Source of the DNA: Candidatus Peregrinibacteria bacterium
GTDB taxonomy: Bacteria; Patescibacteriota; Gracilibacteria; UBA1369; JACRIC01
NCBI GenBank assembly: GCA_016188705.1
Contig: JACPHH010000016.1
Location: 21,690-85,689, forward strand
Direction: 5' to 3'
DNA: 64,000 nucleotides
Shown here: positions 4,871 to 63,603 of the stretch, piece after piece
How positions within the stretch are numbered: position 1 is the first letter of the stretch
Layout of the letters: each line of letters starts with the position of its first letter
Translations under genes and position numbers: made by a program
Notes under the pieces: model-generated
What the model was told of the DNA's origin: nothing
The model's input: the letters and a program-made list of their open reading frames with translations, nothing else
Database searches by the model: none

Positions 4871-4995
4871 AGTGGTGAAAAATTTATAGCCAATTTTGCA
4901 AATTGCAGTAGTAAGCACATTTTTCTTAAGGTTCCTAAATGATTCTCTGAAAATGCAACTTTTTTCGTTCGAATACTGAAAATATCGCTACTAAA
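4871..4995. repeat. head-to-head pair of the intergenic repeat family (long variant with CTACTGCAATTTGC)
   Basis: The minus strand of 4871-4937 reads AGGAACCTTAAGAAAAATGTGCTTACTACTGCAATTTGCAAAATTGGCTATAAATTTTTCACC, about 75 percent identical by eye to 53396-53455. The plus strand from 4941 reads GATTCTCTGAAAATGCAAC. Confidence 0.7.
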
Positions 4996-11196: not shown

Positions 11197-12870
11197 CTAA
11201 GATTGAGGGCTAAAAATGCGAACAATATCATTAAAAGTCACCATAATGATAAGCAGCATAAGCAAAGCATAACCCATACCGTGTATCATAGATTCGAAAC
11301 GAGCATTTGCTCGTTTTCCACGAATAATTTCAACCACAATAAAAAGAAGACGGCCTCCGTCAAGCGCGGGAATCGGAAGAATATTAATCACGCCCAAACT
11401 TAAGGAAAGAAGCGCTGTAAAACGGACAATGGAAAGAAAACCTTGTTTTACGAAAACATGAGTAAGTTGGGCAATGCCAATGGGGCCTGCGACTTCTGAG
11501 GGAACGCGGCCTTCGGAAGTAAGTTTTTGAACCACATTCACAAACATTGAAACCGTAATTTTTGATAAACGCCCAAGTTCGCTCCAGGCCTGAATCGGAG
11601 CTTGCCAAAAAGGATATTTTACAGGACTAATATGAACCACTGAAGTCAAAAGGGAATCGTCATATACTTTGATTCCTGCATACGGATCGCCAAGAACTTG
11701 CGAGAGAACCACTCCCATATAGCCTTGATTATCAGGAACAACTGTAATCGGAAAATTCTGTCCCGAACGGTTCACAACTATTTCGAGAGGCGAGTCGGGA
11801 TATTCTTTCGTAATCGCCCTAACATCCTCAAAGGTTAAAACTTTTTTTCCCTGAACGCTCTGAATCTCATCCCCAGGCTTCAGCCCTGCGGTTTCAGCTG
11901 CGGATTGAGGCAAAACACTACTTACTGCGACAATCGCATTTTGAGAAAAAGGCACCGAAAATTTTATGCGTTCATTATTACGCAAAATTTCATACTCCGT
12001 CGAATCTTTGTATCCGATAGAATCCTCAAGATCTTTAGCAAAATAGAGTTCCTGACCATTCACGCGAAGAATAATATCTCCTGGAAGAATACCTGAAGAA
12101 TAGGCCAAAGAATTGGCATCAATAGAATGAACTCGAACCCGTGGAAGTTCCAGAAGTTCATGCAGAACAAGCCCGCTTTCTTTTTCTGGAACATCAGTAA
12201 GCTGTAAAACAACGGTATTCGCGTTTCTTTGAATTTTAACCTCTTTTATTCCATACTTTCGAATCGTGGCAAAAAAATCTTGAACCGTAAAAACGCGTTC
12301 TGTTTCAAAGCCAAGAATACGGTCTCCCGGATTAAAACCTGTTTTTTCAGCAAAACTTCCTGGCTCCACATTTTTCACCAACATGCCCGGCTGAACTTCC
12401 ATGGTTCCGTTACTAATATTAGAGAGAACATCTTCCCCATTCACAATAAGTGGCTCAATGCCAAAGGTAAAACCAATGTCCAAAAGAATAAACGCGAGTA
12501 AAAAATTCATGACTACTCCCGCGACAATAACTTTCATGCGAGCAAATATGCTTTTATTCACAAAACTGCGAGGATTTTTGAGAGACTGAGAATCGCGGAT
12601 ATCTTCTCCTAAAAGCCTAACAAAACCCCCAAAAGGAATGGCATTAAGGGAATAAACAGTTTCACCATATTTTTTTCCAAATATTCTTGGAGGAAGTCCC
12701 AACCCAAACTCCTGCACATATATATCGGCTCGCTTTGCCATGATAAAATGACCAAATTCATGCACAAGAATAAGAAGTGAAAAAATAATAAAAAATGCCA
12801 GAATTGAAATAAAAATACTCATACGAAAATAAAAATAAGTAATGGGAAAAATTAAACGATATATGTTCAA
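11197..12870 (-). CDS. rseP: RIP site-2 metalloprotease RseP (M50 family) with multiple PDZ domains
   Basis: HEFGHF zinc motif, PDZ-like repeats, and the C-terminal LSLSLGVINILPIPALDGG motif. The likely true start is the Met at 12822 (MSIFISILAFF). Confidence 0.9.
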   Translation of the reverse strand: MNIYRLIFPITYFYFRMSIFISILAFFIIFSLLILVHEFGHFIMAKRADIYVQEFGLGLPPRIFGKKYGETVYSLNAIPFGGFVRLLGEDIRDSQSLKNPRSFVNKSIFARMKVIVAGVVMNFLLAFILLDIGFTFGIEPLIVNGEDVLSNISNGTMEVQPGMLVKNVEPGSFAEKTGFNPGDRILGFETERVFTVQDFFATIRKYGIKEVKIQRNANTVVLQLTDVPEKESGLVLHELLELPRVRVHSIDANSLAYSSGILPGDIILRVNGQELYFAKDLEDSIGYKDSTEYEILRNNERIKFSVPFSQNAIVAVSSVLPQSAAETAGLKPGDEIQSVQGKKVLTFEDVRAITKEYPDSPLEIVVNRSGQNFPITVVPDNQGYMGVVLSQVLGDPYAGIKVYDDSLLTSVVHISPVKYPFWQAPIQAWSELGRLSKITVSMFVNVVQKLTSEGRVPSEVAGPIGIAQLTHVFVKQGFLSIVRFTALLSLSLGVINILPIPALDGGRLLFIVVEIIRGKRANARFESMIHGMGYALLMLLIIMVTFNDIVRIFSPQS

Positions 12871-12897: not shown

Positions 12898-13458
12898 TTA
12901 CACGGTCATTATATCTTTTTCTTTGCTTTTCGCGAGTTCAAGTATAACTTCATTCACCGCATCAACTTTTTCCTGCATTTTCTTTTCACCGCCAAAATAT
13001 TCATTTTCACCGATTTTCTTGTCTTGCTCAAGCTTTTTCATCGCAGTCAAAACATGCTGTCTCGCGTGACGAACTGAAATTCGCGCTTCTTCCGCAAATT
13101 TATGTACTACTTTCACCAATTCCTGGCGTCGTTCCTGCGTAAGAGCTGGAATGGGTATTCGTATCGTGGAACCATCATCGGAAGGATTCAAATTGAGTTC
13201 GGAAGTCTGAATCGATTTTAAAATCGATACAAGAACATTTTTATCCCATGGCTGAAGCGTAATAGTTCGAGCGTCAGTCACCATAATACTGGCAACGGCT
13301 TTCAAAGGTTGCCTGGAACCGTACGCTTCAACTAAAATACCTTCAACTAAAGCAGCATTGGCTCTCCCAATATTGAGGCGTGAATATTCTTCTTTCAAAT
13401 GATTCAAAATTTTCTGGAATTCTTTTTCCGAATCAGTAAGAAATGATGAGATCGACAT
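12898..13458 (-). CDS. frr: ribosome recycling factor
   Basis: 186 aa. LNIGRANAALVEGILVEAYG, IRIPIPALTQERRQELVK and ARISVRHARQ blocks. Confidence 0.95.
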   Translation of the reverse strand: MSISSFLTDSEKEFQKILNHLKEEYSRLNIGRANAALVEGILVEAYGSRQPLKAVASIMVTDARTITLQPWDKNVLVSILKSIQTSELNLNPSDDGSTIRIPIPALTQERRQELVKVVHKFAEEARISVRHARQHVLTAMKKLEQDKKIGENEYFGGEKKMQEKVDAVNEVILELAKSKEKDIMTV

Positions 13459-13467
13459 AAATAAAAG

Positions 13468-14193
13468 TTAAGAAACAAGGGTTCCGACGTGATCACCATT
13501 GCAGGCCTTCAGAAGATTACCTTTTTTCAAAACATTAAAAATCCGAATAGGCAAATGAGCTTCCTGGCAAAGTGATACAGCGGTCAGGTCCATGACCATA
13601 AGCCGCTTTGCAAGTATATCCGAAAAAGAAAGAGAATCAAATGATTTGGCGTTACGATGCTTCATGGGGTCTTTATCATAAACATAATCCACTTTTGTCG
13701 CTTTAAGGAGTTCTTCACATCCAAGTTCAAGGGCGCTCAAAGCAGCCGCTGAATCCGTGGTAAAATAAGGATTTCCAGTGCCTCCAGCCAATATAACAAC
13801 ATCGCCCGACATCAAATGATTACGTGCTGTTTCACGAAAGTAACGAGGAATAATTTGAGGCGCGTCGATGCGAGAAAAAGCAACAGCTGATATATGTTCT
13901 TTGAGAAGCATTCCTTTAAAAACAACGGCATTCATGAGAGTTGCCAACATTCCCAAAAAATCCGAATCGCTTCGCTCAATGGGAAGATCAATACAATCAC
14001 GATACCGCCAAATATTTCCGCCGCCAATGGTAATCGCCAACTGACATCCTCCAGCATGAATCTCTTTTATTTCGCGAATAATATTTTCCATCCGTGACAG
14101 CTCAAAAACACTTTCTCCATCACCGGAAAAAACTTCTCCTGAAAGTTTCAACATAACCCGTTTCTTTTTTTTCACCATATTTTTCTCTGCCAT
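13468..14193 (-). CDS. pyrH: UMP kinase
   Basis: 241 aa. VMLKLSGE, ITIGGGNIWR, GMLATLMNA, ILAGGTGNPYFTTDSAAALSA and VDYVYDKDP blocks. Confidence 0.95.
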   Translation of the reverse strand: MAEKNMVKKKKRVMLKLSGEVFSGDGESVFELSRMENIIREIKEIHAGGCQLAITIGGGNIWRYRDCIDLPIERSDSDFLGMLATLMNAVVFKGMLLKEHISAVAFSRIDAPQIIPRYFRETARNHLMSGDVVILAGGTGNPYFTTDSAAALSALELGCEELLKATKVDYVYDKDPMKHRNAKSFDSLSFSDILAKRLMVMDLTAVSLCQEAHLPIRIFNVLKKGNLLKACNGDHVGTLVS

Positions 14194-14307
14194 ATCGATA
14201 TTTTTTTACGCTCTATATAAATCTACCTTACATTCATGAGCATACTAAATTTCGAAAGAGAAAATGTCAACGAAAGCAATAGGAGTTGTTCACCGCTTTT
14301 GTTGAAG

Positions 14308-14527
14308 CATACTCTTTTTCTTTTGAATACATATGCTGGCAGGCGGAAGTTCGGAGCGAGTTACTCAGGCTGGTTTTCAAAAAGAGGCGAAAATGAGCGT
14401 TAAAAAATGTGTAGCCGATAGCATTTTTAGCGAATTTTCGTCCTTTTTGATCCAGCCGAGTATCCGAGCGACGAGCCCCCGCCTCCCAGCATATGTACTT
14501 TTTTTCAAAGGAAAAAGCGTATGATCC
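14308..14527 (+). mobile_element. MITE-like palindromic element, copy 1
   Basis: Near-identical core to 24093-24317 (inverted) and 39596-39809. It has ~35 bp imperfect terminal inverted repeats and is flanked on both sides by TTTTGTTGAAG (14297-14307 and 14529-14539). Confidence 0.7.
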
Positions 14528-14606
14528 ATTTTGTTGAAGAAATGCCAAAATTTTAATTGACAATATGACATCAAATATTGTAAAATGAATAAATAAAAAC
14601 ATAATT

Positions 14607-23727: not shown

Positions 23728-23995
23728 AAAAAAAACGTAAGGGGTTTATCCTTCGTTTTATAGCTTTTTTGACACATGTATCCCCTGAGGTTTCAGGACA
23801 GCGATGAACACCAAAGGAAAAAAATAATCCGAAATAAAAGAAGAGGAATACAAAATGACCTCGTAAATAAAAGCTAAAAAAACGTAAAGATCGACCATAA
23901 GATTAAAGGAGAAATAAAAAAATGTCAATCAGCAATAATTCGGCTACAAATAAAGAAAAAAACATAATTTCTTCAGTTATTTTAGCTTCAAAAAC

Positions 23996-24032
23996 GGATC
24001 ATGCGCATATTACTTTGAAAAAAAGTATGATC
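23996..24032. mobile_element. 37-bp internally deleted derivative (two termini only) of the MITE-like element
   Basis: GGATCATGCGCATATTACTTTGAAAAAAAGTATGATCC is the left terminus joined to the right terminus of the family. It is flanked by AAAAAC on both sides. Confidence 0.55.
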
Positions 24033-24092
24033 CAAAAACCATTTGATTTGCATTTTAGATTTTTTTTAAAAATTTTTGAAATAGTAAAATAT

Positions 24093-24317
24093 GGATCATA
24101 CGCTTTTTCCTTTGAAAAAAAATACATATCGCTGGGAGGCGGGGGCTCGTCCCTCGGATACTCGGCTGGATCAAAAAGGACGAAAATTCGCTAAAAATGC
24201 TATCGGCTACACATTTTTTAACGCTCATTTTCGCCTCTTTTTGAAAACCAGCCTGCGTAACTCGCTCCGAACCCCCGTCTCCCAGCATATGTTTTCAAAG
24301 AAATTTGCGTATGATCC
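24093..24317 (-). mobile_element. MITE-like palindromic element, copy 2 (inverted relative to copies 1 and 3)
   Basis: The reverse complement aligns end to end with 14308-14527 and 39596-39809. Termini are GGATCATACGC...GCGTATGATCC. Flanks GTAAAAT / GTAAAAAT are imperfect direct repeats. Confidence 0.7.
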
Positions 24318-24361
24318 GTAAAAATCTAAATAGATCCTAATTTTATTTACATTTCAAGAAA

Positions 24362-25498
24362 ATGAATTCTAAAAACTTATCCATAACTCTTAAACACATT
24401 TTTCAAAAATTCTTGAGTATTATTTTTATCATTTTCACTGTGTTTTTTTTGTCGTATTACAAAAATGCAGTACTCAAAACATCCGCGATTGTTCATCAAA
24501 GGTACATCGTAAAAAAAAATACGCATATTTTAAAAAACATCACTCCTAAAAACAACATACCTGAAAAAACCAATCCTAAAACAGAAAAAAAAAAAAAATA
24601 ATCATAAAAAAAAAACAACAACAAAAAATCCACAAAAAAAAAAAATACAAAGAAAAAAAACAACAACAAATCGAAAACTCAAAAAAAAACCACGCAAATA
24701 GCTAAAAATGGAGATCTTTCGAACAAAATTTTTATAACGGAAATTTTTCCAAATCCGCCAGGTCCGGACACAGAAGAAGAATGGATCGAACTTTTTAACG
24801 CGGGAGACACAAAAATATCTCTCGGAAACTGGACTCTCGACGACAGCGAAGGCGGAAGCAAACCATACTCTTTTCCATTTACTACCATCATAAAACCTCA
24901 GGAATATCTTGTTATTTCAAGAAATATCTCGAAAATAGCGCTTAACAATAATCAAGAAAGCGTGCGACTCTTCGACTTTAAAAAAAATACAATAAACGAA
25001 ATCGAATATGAAGAATCCAAAGAAAACGCTTCCTTTTCACGAATTCATATATCTTCAACGGATGAAATCTGGGAATGGACAAACGACATTACCAAAGGAA
25101 AAAAAAATCCACAGTACGAAATATTTACGGGAAATATCCAACAATTTCAAAAAAACCCCTCAAATCCGGAACAAAACGAATTATTATTACAAACCAGTAT
25201 AGAAAAAATTGCGATATTTGTTTCCGACAGCATCGTTGAAACGGCTTTAGCGAAAACACTTTTCGTGCCGGAAACGAAAATAAAAATCATAGCGCAAGAA
25301 AAAAACCAAGGAAATTACGAATTAAAAAGCTTCGAAATACTCAAAAAAGCTCCTCCTCAAAAACAAAAAACGAGTACAGCCGCGACTCTTATAAAATGGA
25401 CTCTGCTTCTACTCGCAGGAGGAATATGTTTGAAAAAAATATGGTTTAAAAATAATCTTTGGGAAAAAATAAAAGCCTCTGTTATTTCAAAAAAATAA
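24362..25498 (+). pseudogene. TM-anchored Lys/Asn-rich linker plus lamin-tail-domain (LTD) protein, interrupted by two in-frame TAA codons
   Basis: ORF 24362..24601 (TM helix) and the LTD-coding segment (ITEIFPNPPGPDTEEEWIELFNAGDTKISLGNWTLDDSEGG...) are in the same frame. They are separated only by TAA at 24599 and TAA at 24605, inside A14/A10 tracts. The LTD part has no ATG/GTG/TTG start before 24962. Confidence 0.5.
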
Positions 25499-37859: not shown

Positions 37860-38094
37860 AAAAGAGGGCGGGGACTCCATTTTCGCTACGCTTCGCTATG
37901 CGCTCAAATGGCAGGAACTCACACAAACTCGCTTTCGTAACGAAATTTTAAATTTTTGAGCGAAAATTGTGAAGAACGAGGAAGGCGTATCAAATAAGAT
38001 ACGTTGACGAGTTCTGAACAATTTGGAGCCAAAAATTTAAAATTGCAGTAGAAATGGGGTTTTGTGTGAGTTCCTGTTGTCCCCGCCCTCTTTT
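37860..38094. repeat. ~235-bp nested inverted repeat (rod-like element)
   Basis: Outer arms are AAAAGAGGGCGGGGAC (37860-37875) and GTCCCCGCCCTCTTTT (38079-38094), perfect over 16 bp. Inner arms are CAGGAACTCACACAAA (37912-37927) and TTTGTGTGAGTTCCTG (38061-38076), also perfect over 16 bp. A 36-nt side hairpin (CCATTT...AAATGG) occurs on the left arm only. There are further internal pairs (AATTTTAAATTTTTG/CCAAAAATTTAAAATT, CGTATC/GATACG). Confidence 0.7.
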
Positions 38095-38648: not shown

Positions 38649-38676
38649 TAAGGACGTTTTTCTTAAGCTTCCTTTA
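38645..38676 (-). repeat. stop-anchored intergenic repeat copy
   Basis: The minus strand reads TAAAGGAAGCTTAAGAAAAACGTCCTTACTAC, starting at the stop of 38674..39564 and running into the 3' end of the convergent ybaK-like gene. Confidence 0.6.
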
Positions 38677-39564
38677 TTCGTTCAAAAGAAAAGAAACTCC
38701 AATTCCAACATCACTTTCAGGGCAAGTTAAACAAACTTCTGTCCCAATTTTTACATCGACATTTCTATTAAGGAATGAAGATAAAATTCTATGAAAAAGA
38801 GTCGCCGTTGCGTTCACTTCAAGAGATGACGGTTGCATATTAATAAGCGAACTCGCAGAGGGATGGTCGCCTGAATGACGATCTCGATCGATTGAATTAT
38901 TGGGAAAAGTCACATGAGCTCTTAATCCAAGCCGAGAATGAAACGCCTTACTTGATAAAAAAGCGCTATGACTTGAAACATCTCTTACATTCAATGCCAA
39001 TGCGCCAGAAACAAAAGAAAAATCGGAATTCACAGATGACCTTTTTAAATCCTCGCCTTGTAAATCAAGATCATGTTGTAAATCGGGAGCCGAAGGGTTG
39101 AATATGCCTTTATTCATAATAGCGCATAAAGATGGCTTTTGTTCAGCTCCATCAGTAAGTTCCATAAGTGGCGCGCTCCTAAAATCAGGAGTTCCTGTCG
39201 CGCCAAGACTTAAAGCGAATGGAAAATCTGATGGACATGAGTTAATGGGTGCTGGATTATTTTTCTGTAAAATTGCATATGAGGAAAAAGGCTGAGGAGC
39301 GATTTGAGAAAATCCCACTCTCGGGCTAACATCCGTCGCGGAAGCTTGGCGTGAAGAAACATCCATCGCAGAAGCTTGATTTGGAGAAATAAGTCCTAAT
39401 ATCGCCGAAGCGACAAAAATACGACAAGCTCTCAAAAATGAAGAAGGAAAAAAACTCGCGCGATCTGAACAAGAAGGATCATCTGGCCTATCAGGACTCT
39501 TAGAATATGATAAAGGCATAAATAAAATCAAAAAATACCTCGATGAGCCTTTGAAAAATGCCAT
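38674..39564 (-). CDS. hypothetical Ser-rich secreted protein
   Basis: 296 aa ORF with a hydrophobic N-terminal region (IFVASAILGLISPNQASA). No recognisable domain. Confidence 0.45.
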   Translation of the reverse strand: MAFFKGSSRYFLILFMPLSYSKSPDRPDDPSCSDRASFFPSSFLRACRIFVASAILGLISPNQASAMDVSSRQASATDVSPRVGFSQIAPQPFSSYAILQKNNPAPINSCPSDFPFALSLGATGTPDFRSAPLMELTDGAEQKPSLCAIMNKGIFNPSAPDLQHDLDLQGEDLKRSSVNSDFSFVSGALALNVRDVSSHSAFLSSKAFHSRLGLRAHVTFPNNSIDRDRHSGDHPSASSLINMQPSSLEVNATATLFHRILSSFLNRNVDVKIGTEVCLTCPESDVGIGVSFLLNE

Positions 39565-39595
39565 TTCAATGACAAAATTGCAAATTTTTTATTAA

Positions 39596-39809
39596 GGATC
39601 ATACGCAAATTTCTTTGAAAACATATGCTGGAAGGCGGGGGTTTAGGCAGGCTGGTTTTCAAAAAGAGGCGAAAATGAGCGTTAAAAAATGCGTAGCCGA
39701 TAGCATTTTTAGCGAATTTTCGTCCTTTTTGATCCAGCCGAGTATCCGAGCGACGAGCCCCCGCCTTCCAGCACATGTACTTTTTTTCAAAGGAAAAAGC
39801 GTATGATCC
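39596..39809 (+). mobile_element. MITE-like palindromic element, copy 3
   Basis: GGATCATACGC...GCGTATGATCC termini. A perfect 8-bp direct repeat, TTTATTAA, abuts both ends (39588-39595 and 39810-39817). It carries a ~10-nt internal deletion relative to copies 1 and 2. Confidence 0.75.
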
Positions 39810-39940
39810 TTTATTAAAAAAAATCGTTAAAACCTGAATTACTTGATTATTAAGAGAAAATTTATCATAATAAAAACCTGTCATTTATGAAAATTCATCG
39901 ATCATTCAATATTCTCGTTCAAAGTTTTTACTCGAATTAT

Positions 39941-39978
39941 GCAACTTTCGTGACGAAATCACGTTTTTCAAAGGTTTC
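39941..39978 (-). repeat. intergenic repeat family copy (TTTCGTCACGAAA variant)
   Basis: The minus strand reads GAAACCTTTGAAAAACGTGATTTCGTCACGAAAGTTGC. Confidence 0.6.
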
Positions 39979-55284: not shown

Positions 55285-55818
55285 ATGAACACAATAAAAT
55301 ACATTCAATTCAGTTTCGTTCTAATAATAATAGGAGCATCACTCCAAACAGCTTTCGCTACAAATGATACATTATTGACAATATCAAATGCCGTGGCAGA
55401 AACGTCTACTCCTTGCACTTCAACTGATCAGGGACTCTGCGTCGACCTTCGAGAGCCTTTAGGCGATCAGGGAACGATACGTGCTAATAGCGGCCTTGGA
55501 TTGGTACAGGAATACGTGAAAGCTATTTACCAATGGGCCGCGGGACTTATTGGAATCGTCGCGGTGCTTAATATGGTTATTGCCGGTATTCAAATAACAA
55601 CTTCCGCTGATTCAGAACGCGCCGCAAGCGCGAAAACTCGCATTATGCAATCGATCGCGGCCATTTGCGTGCTTTTCCTCTCAGGACTTATTCTCTACAC
55701 CATTAACCCAAACTTTTTCGTCACACAAACTATCACAAAGGAAGAAACAATAAATACACAAGCCGAGCCCAGCTCACCTAGTAATACTGGAAGAACCCAA
55801 GACACAACTCCTGAATAA
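55285..55818 (+). CDS. TrbC/VirB2-like T4SS pilin family protein (paralog 2)
   Basis: Same architecture: IYQWAAGLIGIVAVLNMVIAGIQITTSADSERAASAKTRIMQSIAAICVLFLSGLILY. Confidence 0.7.
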   Translation: MNTIKYIQFSFVLIIIGASLQTAFATNDTLLTISNAVAETSTPCTSTDQGLCVDLREPLGDQGTIRANSGLGLVQEYVKAIYQWAAGLIGIVAVLNMVIAGIQITTSADSERAASAKTRIMQSIAAICVLFLSGLILYTINPNFFVTQTITKEETINTQAEPSSPSNTGRTQDTTPE

Positions 55819-55836
55819 TAAAAAATTCTCGTTTGC

Positions 55837-56622
55837 ATGAAGTCAAAAACCATCACAATAAAAATCATAAATATCAGCACAATGTTCATCGTCAGCATAA
55901 ACACAATATTTATGCTGACGAGTCCCGTTTTTTCTACAAAAAATATCGTCTATGCAATGGATTCCACAAATCTCATTGTAGCGAATTCCATAGCAGCGAA
56001 TGCCATAAAACCCGATCTTCCGAGTAATATATTTCTTCCTCAACCAACTGACTCTCAAGCCAATTTTGAATACTTTGTCGATACCTTTCTTCCAAAAATT
56101 TTTGGTTGGTTCATCGCAGCAATCGGAGTTTTCGGACTGATATTTATTCTCATCGGAGGCATAGAATTTTTAACTGCCTACGGAAACGATCAAAACATTG
56201 AAACCGCCAAAAAAACCGTACAAAACGCCGTCATAGGAACCGTTATCGGACTCCTTTCCTATAGCATCGTACTCGCTATAAACAACCTTTCATCCTATTT
56301 TAATTCGATAGAAAATCAACCTCCAACAAATCCCCTCAATCCACCACCCTCCGGAACATTTGATAAAGTACCAAAGGGAGACCTTTTTAAAGATACCGCG
56401 CCAGGAATAATTCGAATTATTCTTGAAATCACGGGATACCTGCTTTTTGCTGCCATCGTAGTGGCGGCAATTATGCTTATCACCGCGAGAGGAAAAGAAG
56501 ACGGCCTGAAAAAAGGGAAAGAAATTCTGAAATACAGCGTCATGGGTCTTATTATTATCGCGATTGCTTACGCTGTTATTTACGGCGTTGCCTCGCTTGA
56601 CTTCTTTAATCCCATCGGATAA
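55837..56622 (+). CDS. TrbC/VirB2-like T4SS pilin family protein with a duplicated pilin module (paralog 3)
   Basis: Two helix-loop-helix modules: FGWFIAAIGVFGLIFILIGGIEFLTAYGNDQNIETAKKTVQNAVIGTVIGLLSYSI, and IILEITGYLLFAAIVVAAIMLITARGKEDGLKKGKEILKYSVMGLIIIAIAYAV. Confidence 0.7.
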   Translation: MKSKTITIKIINISTMFIVSINTIFMLTSPVFSTKNIVYAMDSTNLIVANSIAANAIKPDLPSNIFLPQPTDSQANFEYFVDTFLPKIFGWFIAAIGVFGLIFILIGGIEFLTAYGNDQNIETAKKTVQNAVIGTVIGLLSYSIVLAINNLSSYFNSIENQPPTNPLNPPPSGTFDKVPKGDLFKDTAPGIIRIILEITGYLLFAAIVVAAIMLITARGKEDGLKKGKEILKYSVMGLIIIAIAYAVIYGVASLDFFNPIG

Positions 56623-58683: not shown

Positions 58684-58766
58684 ACGATGAACTTACTGTA
58701 AAAACCGCATCTAGGTCAAGAGTCTACAAAGTAGCTCGCCAATTTGCGCATGATCCAGTTTCCTCT

Positions 58767-59844: not shown

Positions 59845-60489
59845 TTACAAACGTTTATAAGTTCGTGAAGAAAGAGTAGTTTGAAAATCAAGTCTCATAT
59901 TTCCAGATCGAAATGGCGTTTTTGGCCGAAGAGTGATGAAAATTGTTACTCTGGGTTGATACTGAACCTCATTTTTCGACACATTTTCGCTTTGATACGG
60001 ATCAGCGACAGGAGTTATAAGAAAAGCCAACCGTTCAACCACAATGGAATCACGGCTTAAAACGGCAAATCCATCAGAAAAATCCGAAGCATCACGCCAC
60101 GTCCCATCATCTGACTCAATTTGCCGGACAAAACGAAGCGCATTTTCCTCATTTTTTTGAAAAATAACGCGCTGCCCCTCAGGAAGCCGAATAGCCAATG
60201 TATTATCAACAAAACCATTATTTTCATCGAGTTTCTGGCTCTCGCAGTTCGAATCACCGTAGCACGAATAATCTATGGTGCCAGCTCGTATATTCTGACT
60301 CATAAAACCCAGAAGATACTGAGCTTCCTGATACATAAGGCGTTCTTCATTCGCGGAACGAAAAGCTCGAGCCAAAAAAAGACCTGAAGAAAAAACCACG
60401 GCAATAAAAATCACAAAAACAATCATCGCGATAGTAAGTTCAATAAGCGTAAAACCGGCATGAATTTTAAAATTTTTAGAAGTAAACAT
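59845..60489 (-). CDS. prepilin-type N-terminal cleavage/methylation domain protein (minor pilin)
   Basis: MFTSKNFKIHAG-FTLIELTIAMIVFVIF class III signal. The track ORF start is 60510. Confidence 0.8.
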   Translation of the reverse strand: MFTSKNFKIHAGFTLIELTIAMIVFVIFIAVVFSSGLFLARAFRSANEERLMYQEAQYLLGFMSQNIRAGTIDYSCYGDSNCESQKLDENNGFVDNTLAIRLPEGQRVIFQKNEENALRFVRQIESDDGTWRDASDFSDGFAVLSRDSIVVERLAFLITPVADPYQSENVSKNEVQYQPRVTIFITLRPKTPFRSGNMRLDFQTTLSSRTYKRL

Positions 60490-60513
60490 ATGCATGAAAG
60501 TTTCAAACAATAA

Positions 60514-61218
60514 TTAAAGGAGACTGCCTTTCCAATCGGTCAAAAACATTTCTAAACTGAGTTTTCTTGTCCTTCCGCGTTCATTCCATTGAACGATACT
60601 TTGAATACGGGCTAAAGCGTTATCTTTGCCTTCAAGCGGAAAAAATTCAACCATGATATATCGAAAAAACTTACTTTTTGTATCATCCGCGTCAGTTTTT
60701 CCAACAAGATACTGAACGATTTCACGCTCCGTTCCTTTGAAAAGAATATGTTGATAGAGAGAAAGTTTTTCGAGATCAGACGCTTGGAGATTTTCAAAAT
60801 TACGCGGATCAAAATCCAAACATTGAAGCATCCATGGATTAAAATTCATATTTTCACCCACGGGTTTATAATCAGGATTGAAAAAAATACGATAAAACGA
60901 AATATTTTCTTGTTGAAAAGAGCAAGTATCGTGCTCAAACGGACTGCTCGGATTAAAGGAAAGACCAACATTTTCAGAATATCCGGTCCAAGAAAAATTG
61001 GAAAGCCAGTGGGAATCACGAATATTACGAAAAGCCTCAATCCCCTCTTCAGCCAATCCATAAGCCAAAAAATTATTAATATTTGCCTGATTGGCGCGCA
61101 AAGCCGAAAGAATCAAACCTGCGAGCGCGGCAAAAGCCACCGTGAGCACTGAAATGCTCATAAGTACTTCCGCGAGAGTAAAACCTGAATTATTACTTCG
61201 TCCTTTATATTCGATCAT
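60514..61218 (-). CDS. prepilin-type minor pilin (PilV-like)
   Basis: NNSG-FTLAEVLMSISVLTVAFAAL leader and N-terminal helix. Confidence 0.8.
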   Translation of the reverse strand: MIEYKGRSNNSGFTLAEVLMSISVLTVAFAALAGLILSALRANQANINNFLAYGLAEEGIEAFRNIRDSHWLSNFSWTGYSENVGLSFNPSSPFEHDTCSFQQENISFYRIFFNPDYKPVGENMNFNPWMLQCLDFDPRNFENLQASDLEKLSLYQHILFKGTEREIVQYLVGKTDADDTKSKFFRYIMVEFFPLEGKDNALARIQSIVQWNERGRTRKLSLEMFLTDWKGSLL

Positions 61219-61874
61219 AAAAATTTTTGAATCATCATTCTTCCTGTAAGTGGCTCAAGAATAATCTTTTTTTTCAATGAATCACTCGTGCCGTACCTCA
61301 CAAAAAACATGGCCTCGGCATTTCCGGAACGAAGAGCTGTAAATGTATTTCCATCATACCCAAAAATTGAAAAATCGCCATGAGGAGGCGCGAATAAAAC
61401 CAAAAAATACTGATAAAAAATGCCAGAAAATTGAAAATCCGTCATTTCAATACGATCTCCAAAAAAAGTACTCACGGACGAAAAATCAATCGACTCAATC
61501 GATTCAATATCGCAAACAGGAAATGAATTGGATTGAAAAGCAGTACTGACAATTTTGACATCTTGAGGATTCAATTGAATTCCAAGACAGCGAACCTCTT
61601 TTGTGGATTCAACAGGAGCTCCAAGCCCCATTTGCTGATTGACATCATTTTTCTGATTCACATATCGATAACCGCTCTGAATGCGAGTACGAAGCGACGT
61701 AAGAGTGGCGACCACGGAATGAGCTCCAACATCCAGCCGAGCTCGAGCCACATAATCTTGAGTGAAAAAAAGAAGAGCGGAAACAAGAATAAGAATAATC
61801 GTAATGACCACAACAAGTTCAACAAGCGTAAACCCTTTTTTTAAATAAGGAAACCCTGATACATATGATTTCAT
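61215..61874 (-). CDS. prepilin-type minor pilin (FimT/GspH-like)
   Basis: YLKKG-FTLVELVVVITIILILVSALL leader and N-terminal helix. It overlaps the downstream gene by 4 nt. Confidence 0.8.
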   Translation of the reverse strand: MKSYVSGFPYLKKGFTLVELVVVITIILILVSALLFFTQDYVARARLDVGAHSVVATLTSLRTRIQSGYRYVNQKNDVNQQMGLGAPVESTKEVRCLGIQLNPQDVKIVSTAFQSNSFPVCDIESIESIDFSSVSTFFGDRIEMTDFQFSGIFYQYFLVLFAPPHGDFSIFGYDGNTFTALRSGNAEAMFFVRYGTSDSLKKKIILEPLTGRMMIQKFL

Positions 61875-61890
61875 AAAATTTTCAAAAAAA

Positions 61891-63075
61891 TTATACCAAA
61901 CTGCTCAAAGAAAAAATGGGGGCAAGCAAAGCTAAAGCGACAAAAAGCACACCCAAGCCAACAATGACAATAAGTACCGGCTCAATGAGAGAAGTAACTT
62001 CCTGAATGGAGTGAATAACTTCCTGTTCATAATGTTTCGAAACTTTTTCAGCGGCCTGATCAAGAGTACCGGCTCGCTCTCCAATATCAAGAACCGCCGA
62101 AACAATGGAAGGGAAAAGAAAAGAGCTGGACTCAAGACCGGGAACGAAACGCTCTCCATGTCGTATTTTCCAGTCAACTTCGCGTAATTTTCGTTTATAA
62201 ACATCGTTACCAGCCGACCGAATAAGAATCTCCGAAACTTTAATCATGGAAAGACCAGACGTAAGAAGAACGGAGAGAAGTCTTAAAAGTCGAGCAAGAA
62301 TAATTTTTCGCTTCAACATGCCAAAAAATGGAAATCGTAATTGAAACATATCAAAACGAAATTTTCCTTCTTCCGTAGAAATATAAAACTGAAAAAAAAC
62401 ATGCAAGGAAATAAACGCGAAAATCAGCGTCCACCAGTAACTTGTCATAAAATTGCTCACGCGAATAAGGATAATCGTGATAAAAGGAACTTCCGCGTTA
62501 TTGAGAGTAAAAAATTCCATCAAGTTCGGCACCACGAGAGTAACAACAACCAAAATCGCTATAAAAAGCACAATAAGAACCATCACCGGATATGTCAGAG
62601 CCGAACGAATCTTCAGCCTCAATGTATAATCATCTGCCACTTGTTGAGAAAGTCGTTCAAACATTTTTTCCAGATTACCCACGGTTTCGCCGCTTCTCAC
62701 CACTTCCACTTCTCCTTCGTGAAACACGTCAGGAAAACGCGCCATGGCATCGGAAAGATTTTTCCCCGCGTCAACATCTCGCGCAGCGGTTCCAAGAACG
62801 CGTTTAAAACGCGGCGTTTTAAGTTTTCGCGCCAAAATATGCAAAGCCTTGACTATGGAAACACCTGCGTCAATCATCACGGACATCAGATGAAAAAAAT
62901 ACGCTTTTTCTTTTAAAGAAACACGACTGCGATCAATAAAAAAATCTTCCAATCTTTGAAAAAATGATCGATAATGTTCTTCTCCTGATCCATAAACAAA
63001 AATAGGCTCTGAATCTTCAGTGAGAGTAAAGCCCTCAAGCAAACGATCCTTCTTTTCACTCTCGGAAAAGTCCAT
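61891..63075 (-). CDS. pilC: type IV pilus platform protein PilC (GspF family)
   Basis: 394 aa with two GspF repeats (LSDAMARFPDVF..., FPSIVSAVLDIGERAGTLD) and three TM segments. Confidence 0.9.
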   Translation of the reverse strand: MDFSESEKKDRLLEGFTLTEDSEPIFVYGSGEEHYRSFFQRLEDFFIDRSRVSLKEKAYFFHLMSVMIDAGVSIVKALHILARKLKTPRFKRVLGTAARDVDAGKNLSDAMARFPDVFHEGEVEVVRSGETVGNLEKMFERLSQQVADDYTLRLKIRSALTYPVMVLIVLFIAILVVVTLVVPNLMEFFTLNNAEVPFITIILIRVSNFMTSYWWTLIFAFISLHVFFQFYISTEEGKFRFDMFQLRFPFFGMLKRKIILARLLRLLSVLLTSGLSMIKVSEILIRSAGNDVYKRKLREVDWKIRHGERFVPGLESSSFLFPSIVSAVLDIGERAGTLDQAAEKVSKHYEQEVIHSIQEVTSLIEPVLIVIVGLGVLFVALALLAPIFSLSSLV

Positions 63076-63084
63076 AAAAATGGG

Positions 63085-63603
63085 TTATGAACTCTGATAA
63101 TACGATTCCATGCGAAGGTGAAAAGTGCTTGAGCCATCATCATGGCGTTCAATTTGCATGGTTTTGACCCGTATAATGCGGTGTTCTTCTTCCAAAGCCT
63201 TTAAAAAGGCCAAAAGATCAGAAAAACTCCCCTGAAAACTCGAAGAAATTGAAAGAATTGCGACCCCCTCAATAAAATCTTCTCCGAGAGTAAAATTCAT
63301 ATCTTGAAACGTAATATGAAATCGAGAAGCCAAAGTATCAAAAAGTCGCACAATCCGATCCTGTTCGCTTTGAGCCGGCACTTGAGCCAGAATGAGCTGG
63401 CGTGAAGCCTTATCTTCGGGAAAAGATATTTTAAGAGCTTCCAATTCCTGCGCTTGTTTTTCAAGTTCCTGAATTTCCTTCTGCCGTTCGTCGCGTTGAG
63501 CAGTAAGACTATCAATTTTCGTTTGAACAGGACGGATATAAAATACCCACAAAGCAACAATAACAAGAAGGAGAAAAAGAGTGAAAATTCGCGTTTTTTT
63601 CAT
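63085..63603 (-). CDS. pilO: PilO-like pilus assembly protein
   Basis: 172 aa. N-terminal TM helix, a coiled coil (QRDERQKEIQELEKQAQELE) and a ferredoxin-like C-terminal domain. Its position between pilN-like and pilC genes supports the call. Confidence 0.6.
   Translation of the reverse strand: MKKTRIFTLFLLLVIVALWVFYIRPVQTKIDSLTAQRDERQKEIQELEKQAQELEALKISFPEDKASRQLILAQVPAQSEQDRIVRLFDTLASRFHITFQDMNFTLGEDFIEGVAILSISSSFQGSFSDLLAFLKALEEEHRIIRVKTMQIERHDDGSSTFHLRMESYYQSS

Follow-up and report, generated by a model that had tools for sequence, protein, structure and literature searches.

The window analysed here is a 64-kb stretch (64,000 nucleotides) of a Candidatus Peregrinibacteria metagenome-assembled genome (MAG; locus tag prefix HYV57). 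The genes pyrH, frr, rseP and dnaA and a CBM96-domain gene are divergent at a spacer that holds a palindromic repeat element, the first of three full copies in the window (Table 1). The UMP kinase adjoining this copy is closest to Peregrinibacteria and Gracilibacteria proteins. An earlier note, made from the letters alone, had described three copies sharing a nearly identical core, the middle one inverted. The description was reproduced, and a profile built from the three copies finds each of them at nhmmer E values of 1e-78 to 1e-83.

Table 1. Positions of the element, its derivatives and neighbouring features in the 64-kb window
Feature	Position	Strand	Remarks
dnaA	9769-11190	-	
rseP	11197-12870	-	
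frr	12898-13458	-	
pyrH	13468-14193	-	
Promoter-like site for pyrH	14242-14270	-	TTGACA-17-TAGTAT, 10/12; between element and pyrH
Left 8-bp duplication, copy 1	14296-14303		CTTTTGTT
Element copy 1	14304-14527 (14308-14527 in the earlier note)	+	Left terminus degenerate, GAAGCATACTC; right terminus canonical, GCGTATGATCC
Right 8-bp duplication, copy 1	14528-14535		ATTTTGTT; 7/8 match to left
Promoter-like site for CBM96-domain gene	14557-14586	+	TTGACA-18-TAAAAT, 11/12; between element and gene
CBM96-domain gene	starts 14607	+	
38-bp mini-derivative	23996-24033	+	GGATCATGCGC, 18 nt resembling the subterminal right end, GTATGATCC
Element copy 2	24093-24317	- (inverted)	Both termini canonical
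LTD-domain gene	24362-25498	+	
281-aa hypothetical gene	38674-39564	-	
Left 8-bp duplication, copy 3	39588-39595		TTTATTAA
Element copy 3	39596-39809	+	Both termini canonical; left arm with 10-nt deletion
Right 8-bp duplication, copy 3	39810-39817		TTTATTAA; perfect 8/8
Possible solo end remnant	58741-58756	+	AATTTGCGCATGATCC, 15/16 match to left-type end AATTTGCGTATGATCC; weak
Second repeat family	4886-4950 (+), 38011-38085 (+), 53385-53450 (-), 37912-37977 (-)		Unrelated to the element
37-nt motif TTTCGTGACRAAATCAYGTTTTTCAAAGGTTT	39941-39977 (+), 49088-49124 (-)		Small hairpin and T-run
Surface and DNA-uptake loci	46569-48821, 52349-53395, 55285-56622, 59845-63603		

The element and its genomic setting

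All three copies lie in AT-rich intergenic DNA, in both orientations (+, -, +), and the earlier placement of the full copies between divergent genes holds for each of them. Copy 1 is found about 111-126 nt upstream of pyrH, in agreement with the 115 nt upstream of the pyrH-frr-rseP-dnaA operon given before. It occupies the spacer that separates two divergent promoter-like sites, one for pyrH and one for the CBM96-domain gene. The -35 region of the former is kept in a related lineage (Logan SRR22387933, discussed below). Because both sites are left intact, the arrangement suggests a tolerated insertion rather than a function for copy 1. Copy 2 has RNase Y (-) on one side and, on the other, an LTD-domain gene (+) whose ATG (24362) follows after 44 nt. 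Copy 3 is situated between a gene for a 281-aa conserved hypothetical protein (-) and an RND adaptor gene (+).

Two of these neighbours deserve comment in their own right. The LTD-domain gene contains two in-frame TAA codons (~24599-24607) within a lysine-rich A-tract, and its product is 64% identical over 339 residues to an intact 356-aa protein (P0125) of the relative. It may be a pseudogene, perhaps after the insertion displaced its promoter, in which case copy 2 may have silenced its neighbour, or the stop codons may reflect a homopolymer assembly error. The 281-aa hypothetical protein is encoded by a Ser/Pro-rich open reading frame that matched no Pfam or NCBIfam family and is conserved only in the close relative (57% identity). 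As conservation begins at residue 16, the true start is probably at 39519.

The element is 214-225 bp long in the three full copies. Its canonical ends are GGATCATACGC on the left and GCGTATGATCC on the right; the former, allowing at most one mismatch, occurs seven times in the window against 0.67 expected. These 11-bp termini are perfect, and are set inside imperfect inverted repeats of 34-37 nt with 79-84% complementarity, close to the ~35 bp first reported. The symmetry extends well beyond the ends: the left half is 64-71% identical to the reverse complement of the right half over ~110 nt. Since the unit is a palindrome, the profile also scores on the opposite strand of the copies (E ~1e-23). 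The proposal that the whole unit folds into one long imperfect rod was borne out by folding of its RNA (-110.8 kcal/mol, z = -12.8). The RNA of the opposite strand folds at -100.8 kcal/mol (z = -10.8), and copy 1 as single-stranded DNA at -58.3 (z = -8.9). A promoter scan found no site inside the element. An outward-facing promoter in the termini was considered, with a TATGAT lying 2 nt from each end, but was rejected for want of an acceptable -35.

Conservation along the element is uneven. A 26-nt core probe has three exact matches in the window (none expected), the core quoted in the earlier note has only two variable positions across the three copies, and ~160 nt comprising the core and right arm are 96-99% identical among them. 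The centre and right arm are the best conserved parts (2-4% differences), while up to 22% of positions differ in the left subterminal arm. A core of 100 nt is nearly invariant, both in the three DNA copies and in five more judged from translated open reading frames. A purely neutral interior would not predict fewer differences in the central core than in the subterminal arms, as observed here. Copies 1 and 2 differ at 14 positions in the left 63 nt (22%) and at three in the remaining 162 nt (2%), a contrast with a Fisher p value of 2e-6. Because its left 63 nt are diverged and its remaining 162 nt are nearly identical to copy 2, copy 1 is a mosaic. Its left-arm variant, GGCAGGCGGAAG, is also found in one copy of the relative.

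The open reading frames that cross the element are frame-shifted between copies, with different starts and ends, and for this reason the element holds no credible gene. A transposase was likewise sought and, as the earlier note had stated, none is detectable in the window: no transposase domain occurs in its 53 non-nested open reading frames of at least 150 aa, no Y1_Tnp domain occurs in frames of that size, and no autonomous partner with matching termini was found in the 64 kb. Elsewhere the window encodes machinery for the cell surface and DNA uptake of a kind typical of CPR genomes, comprising a TraD-like coupling protein, a second T2SSE ATPase, a pair of T4SS-pilin-domain proteins and a type IV pilus block with N-methyl pilins, T2SSF and PilO.

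Target duplications, derivatives and further copies

The flanks of the element carry short direct repeats. Those of copy 3 are identical over 8 bp, and those of copy 1 match at seven of eight positions and can be written jointly as (C/A)TTTTGTT. The flanks of copy 2, TAAAATAT and GTAAAAAT, match at five of eight positions; taken instead as GTAAAATAT and GTAAAAATC, they match at six of nine. For AT-rich positions of this window at equal spacing, the chance probability is ~0.001 for a match of 8/8, ~0.010 for at least 7/8 and ~0.14 for at least 5/8, figures to be read with three copies examined. An 11-bp direct repeat immediately outside both ends of copy 1 had been proposed as the target duplication. 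The repeat, TTTTGTTGAAG, is indeed exact (14297-14307 and 14529-14539), but it is not strictly external to the element and the duplication is shorter. The last four nucleotides of its left occurrence (GAAG, 14304-14307) align with the terminal GGAT of the other copies, and its right occurrence begins 1 nt beyond the terminus of copy 1. Because the repeat overlaps the mutated left terminus (GAAGCATACTC for GGATCATACGC), it is an 8-bp duplication extended by three to four matching bases, and the target duplication of the family is 8 bp, not 11.

The window also contains shortened forms. The mini-derivative near copy 2 keeps both element termini in 38 bp and is flanked on each side by AAAAAC (23990-23995 and 24034-24039). 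Apart from this derivative, nothing significant was found when the reconstructed pre-insertion sites were searched for residual element sequence.

Further copies outside the window were detected through NCBI-annotated open reading frames that cross them. The 118-aa frame through copy 3 is MBI2463975.1 (HYV57_03395), on a contig of 90,385 bp, and the 76-aa frame through copy 2 is MBI2463959.1, called by PGAP. The latter clusters at 90% identity or more with five further open reading frames of this MAG, each on a different contig outside the window's own, and contig ends interrupt two of them. The genome therefore has at least eight copies, three in the window and at least five on other contigs. 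"Hypothetical proteins" called by PGAP across the element are HYV57_03300, _03395, _01615, _03545, _04700, _05140 and _05275; those over window copies lie at 24091-24321 (+) and 39528-39884 (-). These reading frames through the element, at least seven in number, are almost certainly spurious.

An independent assembly bears on the integrity of the copies. In Logan SRR12113422, contigs of the same strain break off within copies 1 and 3 and within the mini-derivative, as assemblies typically do at repeats. They reproduce the flank-element junctions base for base, over 92 nt for copy 1 and 30 nt for copy 3 and also at the mini-derivative, and thus confirm them independently.

No named family could be attached to the element, as the earlier note had anticipated: Rfam, plasmids, phages, IMG/VR, JGI, GTDB representatives and the literature gave no match. 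The Rfam check that the note had proposed was run on the element and matched no family. Only three tRNAs in the window reach gathering scores, and the best hits around copy 1 are of 12-15 bits against gathering thresholds of 50-64. A core 20-mer had three matches in GTDB representative genomes, at the junction between the stop of methionine aminopeptidase and the start of the next gene in Clostridia MAGs. Because that junction resembles an RBS-plus-ATG-like string, these matches were set aside as chance. JGI metagenomes and IMG/VR gave no match to the both-ends pattern and a second core 20-mer; one JGI/IMG-VR match, in a GC-rich contig, was also attributed to chance. A blastn search of plasmids and phages with copy 3 returned nothing real. 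A search of 5.8 billion proteins with three element-frame peptides joined recovered only one open reading frame, the window's own (P0121). This search missed the 76-aa frame of copy 2, which is present in the collection, and it was an exact-cluster look-up that revealed the extra copies. Literature searches on MITEs in CPR, Patescibacteria and Peregrinibacteria, and on the terminal 11-mers, produced nothing relevant, and the main text of a survey of MITEs in 183,232 genomes makes no mention of CPR (PMC11602168). Although of a textbook kind, the element belongs to a family that has no name, in a phylum that has been little studied.

The element in a related lineage

The relative represented by SRR22387933 is syntenic with the window (PyrH 78% identical, DnaA at least 90% identical), and all three insertion sites can be compared. 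At the copy-1 site the spacer between pyrH and the CBM96-domain gene is 198 nt, against ~413 nt here, and the element is absent. The pyrH promoter region aligns; the remainder is too diverged to show an exact empty target with a single TTTTGTTGAAG. A sequence in this spacer that resembles the terminal inverted repeat, GTGTATAATC, was considered as a remnant but is better read as an extended -10 promoter.

The other two sites retain traces of the family. At the copy-2 site (~24093; positions 3373-3386 of the relative's locus L010) the relative reads GCATCATACGCTTT. Here ATCATACGCTTT, at the aligned position, is a 12/12 match to an element end, and the element and the mini-derivative are otherwise absent. 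This sequence may be what is left of a deleted copy, or an end-like target that existed beforehand. At the copy-3 site the flank ...ATTGCAAATTTT runs directly into CGCCATTTTTGATCCAGCTGAATATC..., which belongs to the right arm of the element in the same orientation (~74% identity; nhmmer E = 3e-10). The junction would fit a deletion between GCAAATTTT in the flank and GCGAATTTT within the element. A second copy, at the other end of the same contig, is ~87% identical (E = 1e-19). In it the left arm and apex are fused directly to GTGTATGATCC, and the right terminus is kept. The contig (L019, 2.4 kb) has element copies at both of its ends, 1-75 and 2272-2377, one of them 5'-truncated and the other lacking the right arm but possessing the right terminus. 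That it is bounded in this way indicates that the family breaks the assembly of the relative too.

The family is thus present in at least two lineages, with the copies of the relative diverged and partly deleted. Internally deleted members keep their termini in both genomes, as expected if a transposase needs them. Where both lineages have a copy at the same site, the flanking proteins are 57-90% identical, and copies within the genome resemble one another more closely than do those that the two lineages have at the shared site. The insertions at the copy-2 and copy-3 sites may therefore be old, yet the copies within the genome are 96-99% identical over the core and right arm, a pattern that calls for gene conversion or for recurrent insertion at these spots. 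The mosaic structure of copy 1, together with the same-site copy in both lineages, suggests that gene conversion has homogenised the core and right arm in this genome, or that insertion has recurred in certain spacers. A conserved saccharopine dehydrogenase led to Peregrinibacteria loci at a greater distance (L011-L016); these lack synteny with the window and have no copy of the element.

Nature and significance of the element

We consider the element to be a non-autonomous MITE that relies on a DDE-type transposase supplied in trans from another locus, with a probability of about 0.8. This reading is based on its size, inverted termini, flanking repeats, AT-rich intergenic sites and stem-loop, all of which agree with the structural definition of prokaryotic MITEs in a review (PMC10969869). 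The earlier note had likewise called the element MITE-like and non-autonomous, a view that the inverted termini, the 8-bp duplications, the hairpin and a copy number of at least eight all support. The 11-bp termini, within their ~35-bp imperfect inverted repeats, would be the sites of transposase binding and cleavage. The transposase, whose type and action in trans are deduced from these features, would make cuts staggered by 8 bp in AT-rich intergenic DNA, and integration would leave direct repeats of that length. Copy 1, with its mutated left terminus, would no longer be able to move, and the copies within the genome would have been homogenised by gene conversion.

Duplications of 8 bp are typical of several DDE families of insertion sequences, among them IS1, IS6, IS66, IS256, ISL3 and IS1595. 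Prokaryotic MITEs such as QMITE2 of Coxiella and MITEAba12 of Acinetobacter resemble the element in being shorter than 500 bp and lacking a transposase, in their terminal inverted repeats, flanking direct repeats, AT-rich intergenic targets and dispersed copies, and in the stable stem-loop of the transcript or single strand. The element differs from them in its CPR host and in having no sequence similarity to the collections searched. The enterobacterial ERIC/IRU and YPAL repeats and the Neisseria Correia element, all from Proteobacteria, are intergenic, 100-170 bp long and imperfectly palindromic over most of their length, are thought to be MITEs mobilised by transposases, and have TA or very short target duplications. 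The present element is longer, has 8-bp duplications and shares no sequence with them, and neither an IHF site nor a promoter function was seen in it. In particular, a TA dinucleotide duplication defines Correia and IS630-Tc1-type MITEs, whereas the flanks here are 8-bp repeats.

The same-site copy in two lineages, the 96-99% identity within the genome and the mosaic nature of copy 1 could mean that the element is a long-term, vertically inherited intergenic resident of Peregrinibacteria, kept uniform in each genome by gene conversion or by selection on the 100-nt core. We think this unlikely, but if true it would make the element a REPIN-like "nested replicator", or else a hairpin that has been domesticated as a module between divergent promoters, in a reduced CPR genome apparently without a transposase of its own. 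A REPIN-like element proper would consist of two inverted halves moved as single-stranded DNA by a RAYT, inherited vertically and persistent at its sites. Such an origin would account for the symmetrical hairpin, palindromic over the whole unit (arms 64-71% identical) and strong as single-stranded DNA. It would also account for the multiple intergenic copies and for the apparent long residence at a site occupied in the same orientation in both lineages; a greater similarity among copies within a genome than between copies at a shared site has been reported for vertically persistent REPINs. REPINs, however, are hairpin-forming inverted doublets tied to RAYTs, with two conserved REP 16-25-mers and a looser spacer (PMC3116915). 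In the present element conservation is highest at the centre and not in two REP motifs, its shortened derivatives retain the 11-bp termini as a DDE transposase substrate should, and neither a nearby RAYT nor a Y1 transposase domain occurs among the window's open reading frames of at least 150 aa. The element has 8-bp flanking duplications, which IS200/IS605-type and RAYT chemistry is not known to produce, and a REPIN-like origin is improbable.

It is quite improbable that the element is instead a functional structured RNA or cis-regulatory hairpin, duplicated and kept by selection as an insulator or attenuator between promoters or as a dsRNA substrate. The near-invariance of the 100-nt core in three DNA copies and in five judged from reading frames, the extreme fold z-scores and the location of all three copies between divergent genes would suit such a role. 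Yet a preference for divergent spacers cannot be judged from three sites, an inverted-duplicate transposon yields a long near-perfect hairpin in any case, and the element lacks both an Rfam match and a promoter-like site within it. Relative to the neighbouring genes its copies face either way, and the truncated or internally deleted copies of the relative speak against a conserved function. A gene for a small protein carried on the repeat, whether the 43-aa frame beginning MSVKKCVADS or the NCBI-annotated frames of 63-76 aa on the other strand, has very little to recommend it. Frames do run through the element on both strands, seven have been annotated by PGAP, and the internal ATG of the 43-aa frame has a Shine-Dalgarno-like AGAGG 5 nt upstream. 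Open frames on both strands are, however, a by-product of the palindrome; their starts and ends vary among copies, and a 1-nt insertion in copy 2 alters the C-terminus of the + frame. The joined-peptide search of 5.8 billion proteins, though it missed the copy-2 frame, gave only one open reading frame, from this MAG. That the element is a collapsed or chimeric repeat produced by assembly might be suspected in a MAG with two of the extra copies at contig ends. This explanation is scarcely tenable: it is effectively refuted by the independent Logan assemblies that reproduce the flank-element junctions, and related copies occur in a second lineage from another sample.

CPR genomes are ~1 Mb in size and are usually described as poor in mobile DNA. 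If the element is a MITE, as we favour, then at least eight copies in one genome, three of them within 64 kb, show that small transposons do proliferate in CPR bacteria. The element explains contig breaks in these MAGs and at least seven spurious NCBI "hypothetical proteins", and possibly the decay of the neighbouring LTD-domain gene. A repeat model that masks the element's reading frames would be of practical value in annotation. The biological interest is modest: a family common to two lineages, and apparently homogenised within each genome, offers a possible system for studying gene conversion or the persistence of transposons in the reduced genomes of episymbionts.

Other small repeats are present in the window. 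A second, unrelated family of ~65-75 nt (...AGCCAAAATTTGCAAATTGCAGTAGTAATCACATTTTTC..AGTTCCT...) has two members arranged as an inverted pair with 33 nt between them, shortly before a tRNA_edit-domain gene (38169). The 37-nt motif TTTCGTGACRAAATCAYGTTTTTCAAAGGTTT precedes the RND adaptor gene by 17 nt and lies upstream of an FtsQ-like gene as well; it may be an operator or a terminator, or one more small repeat.
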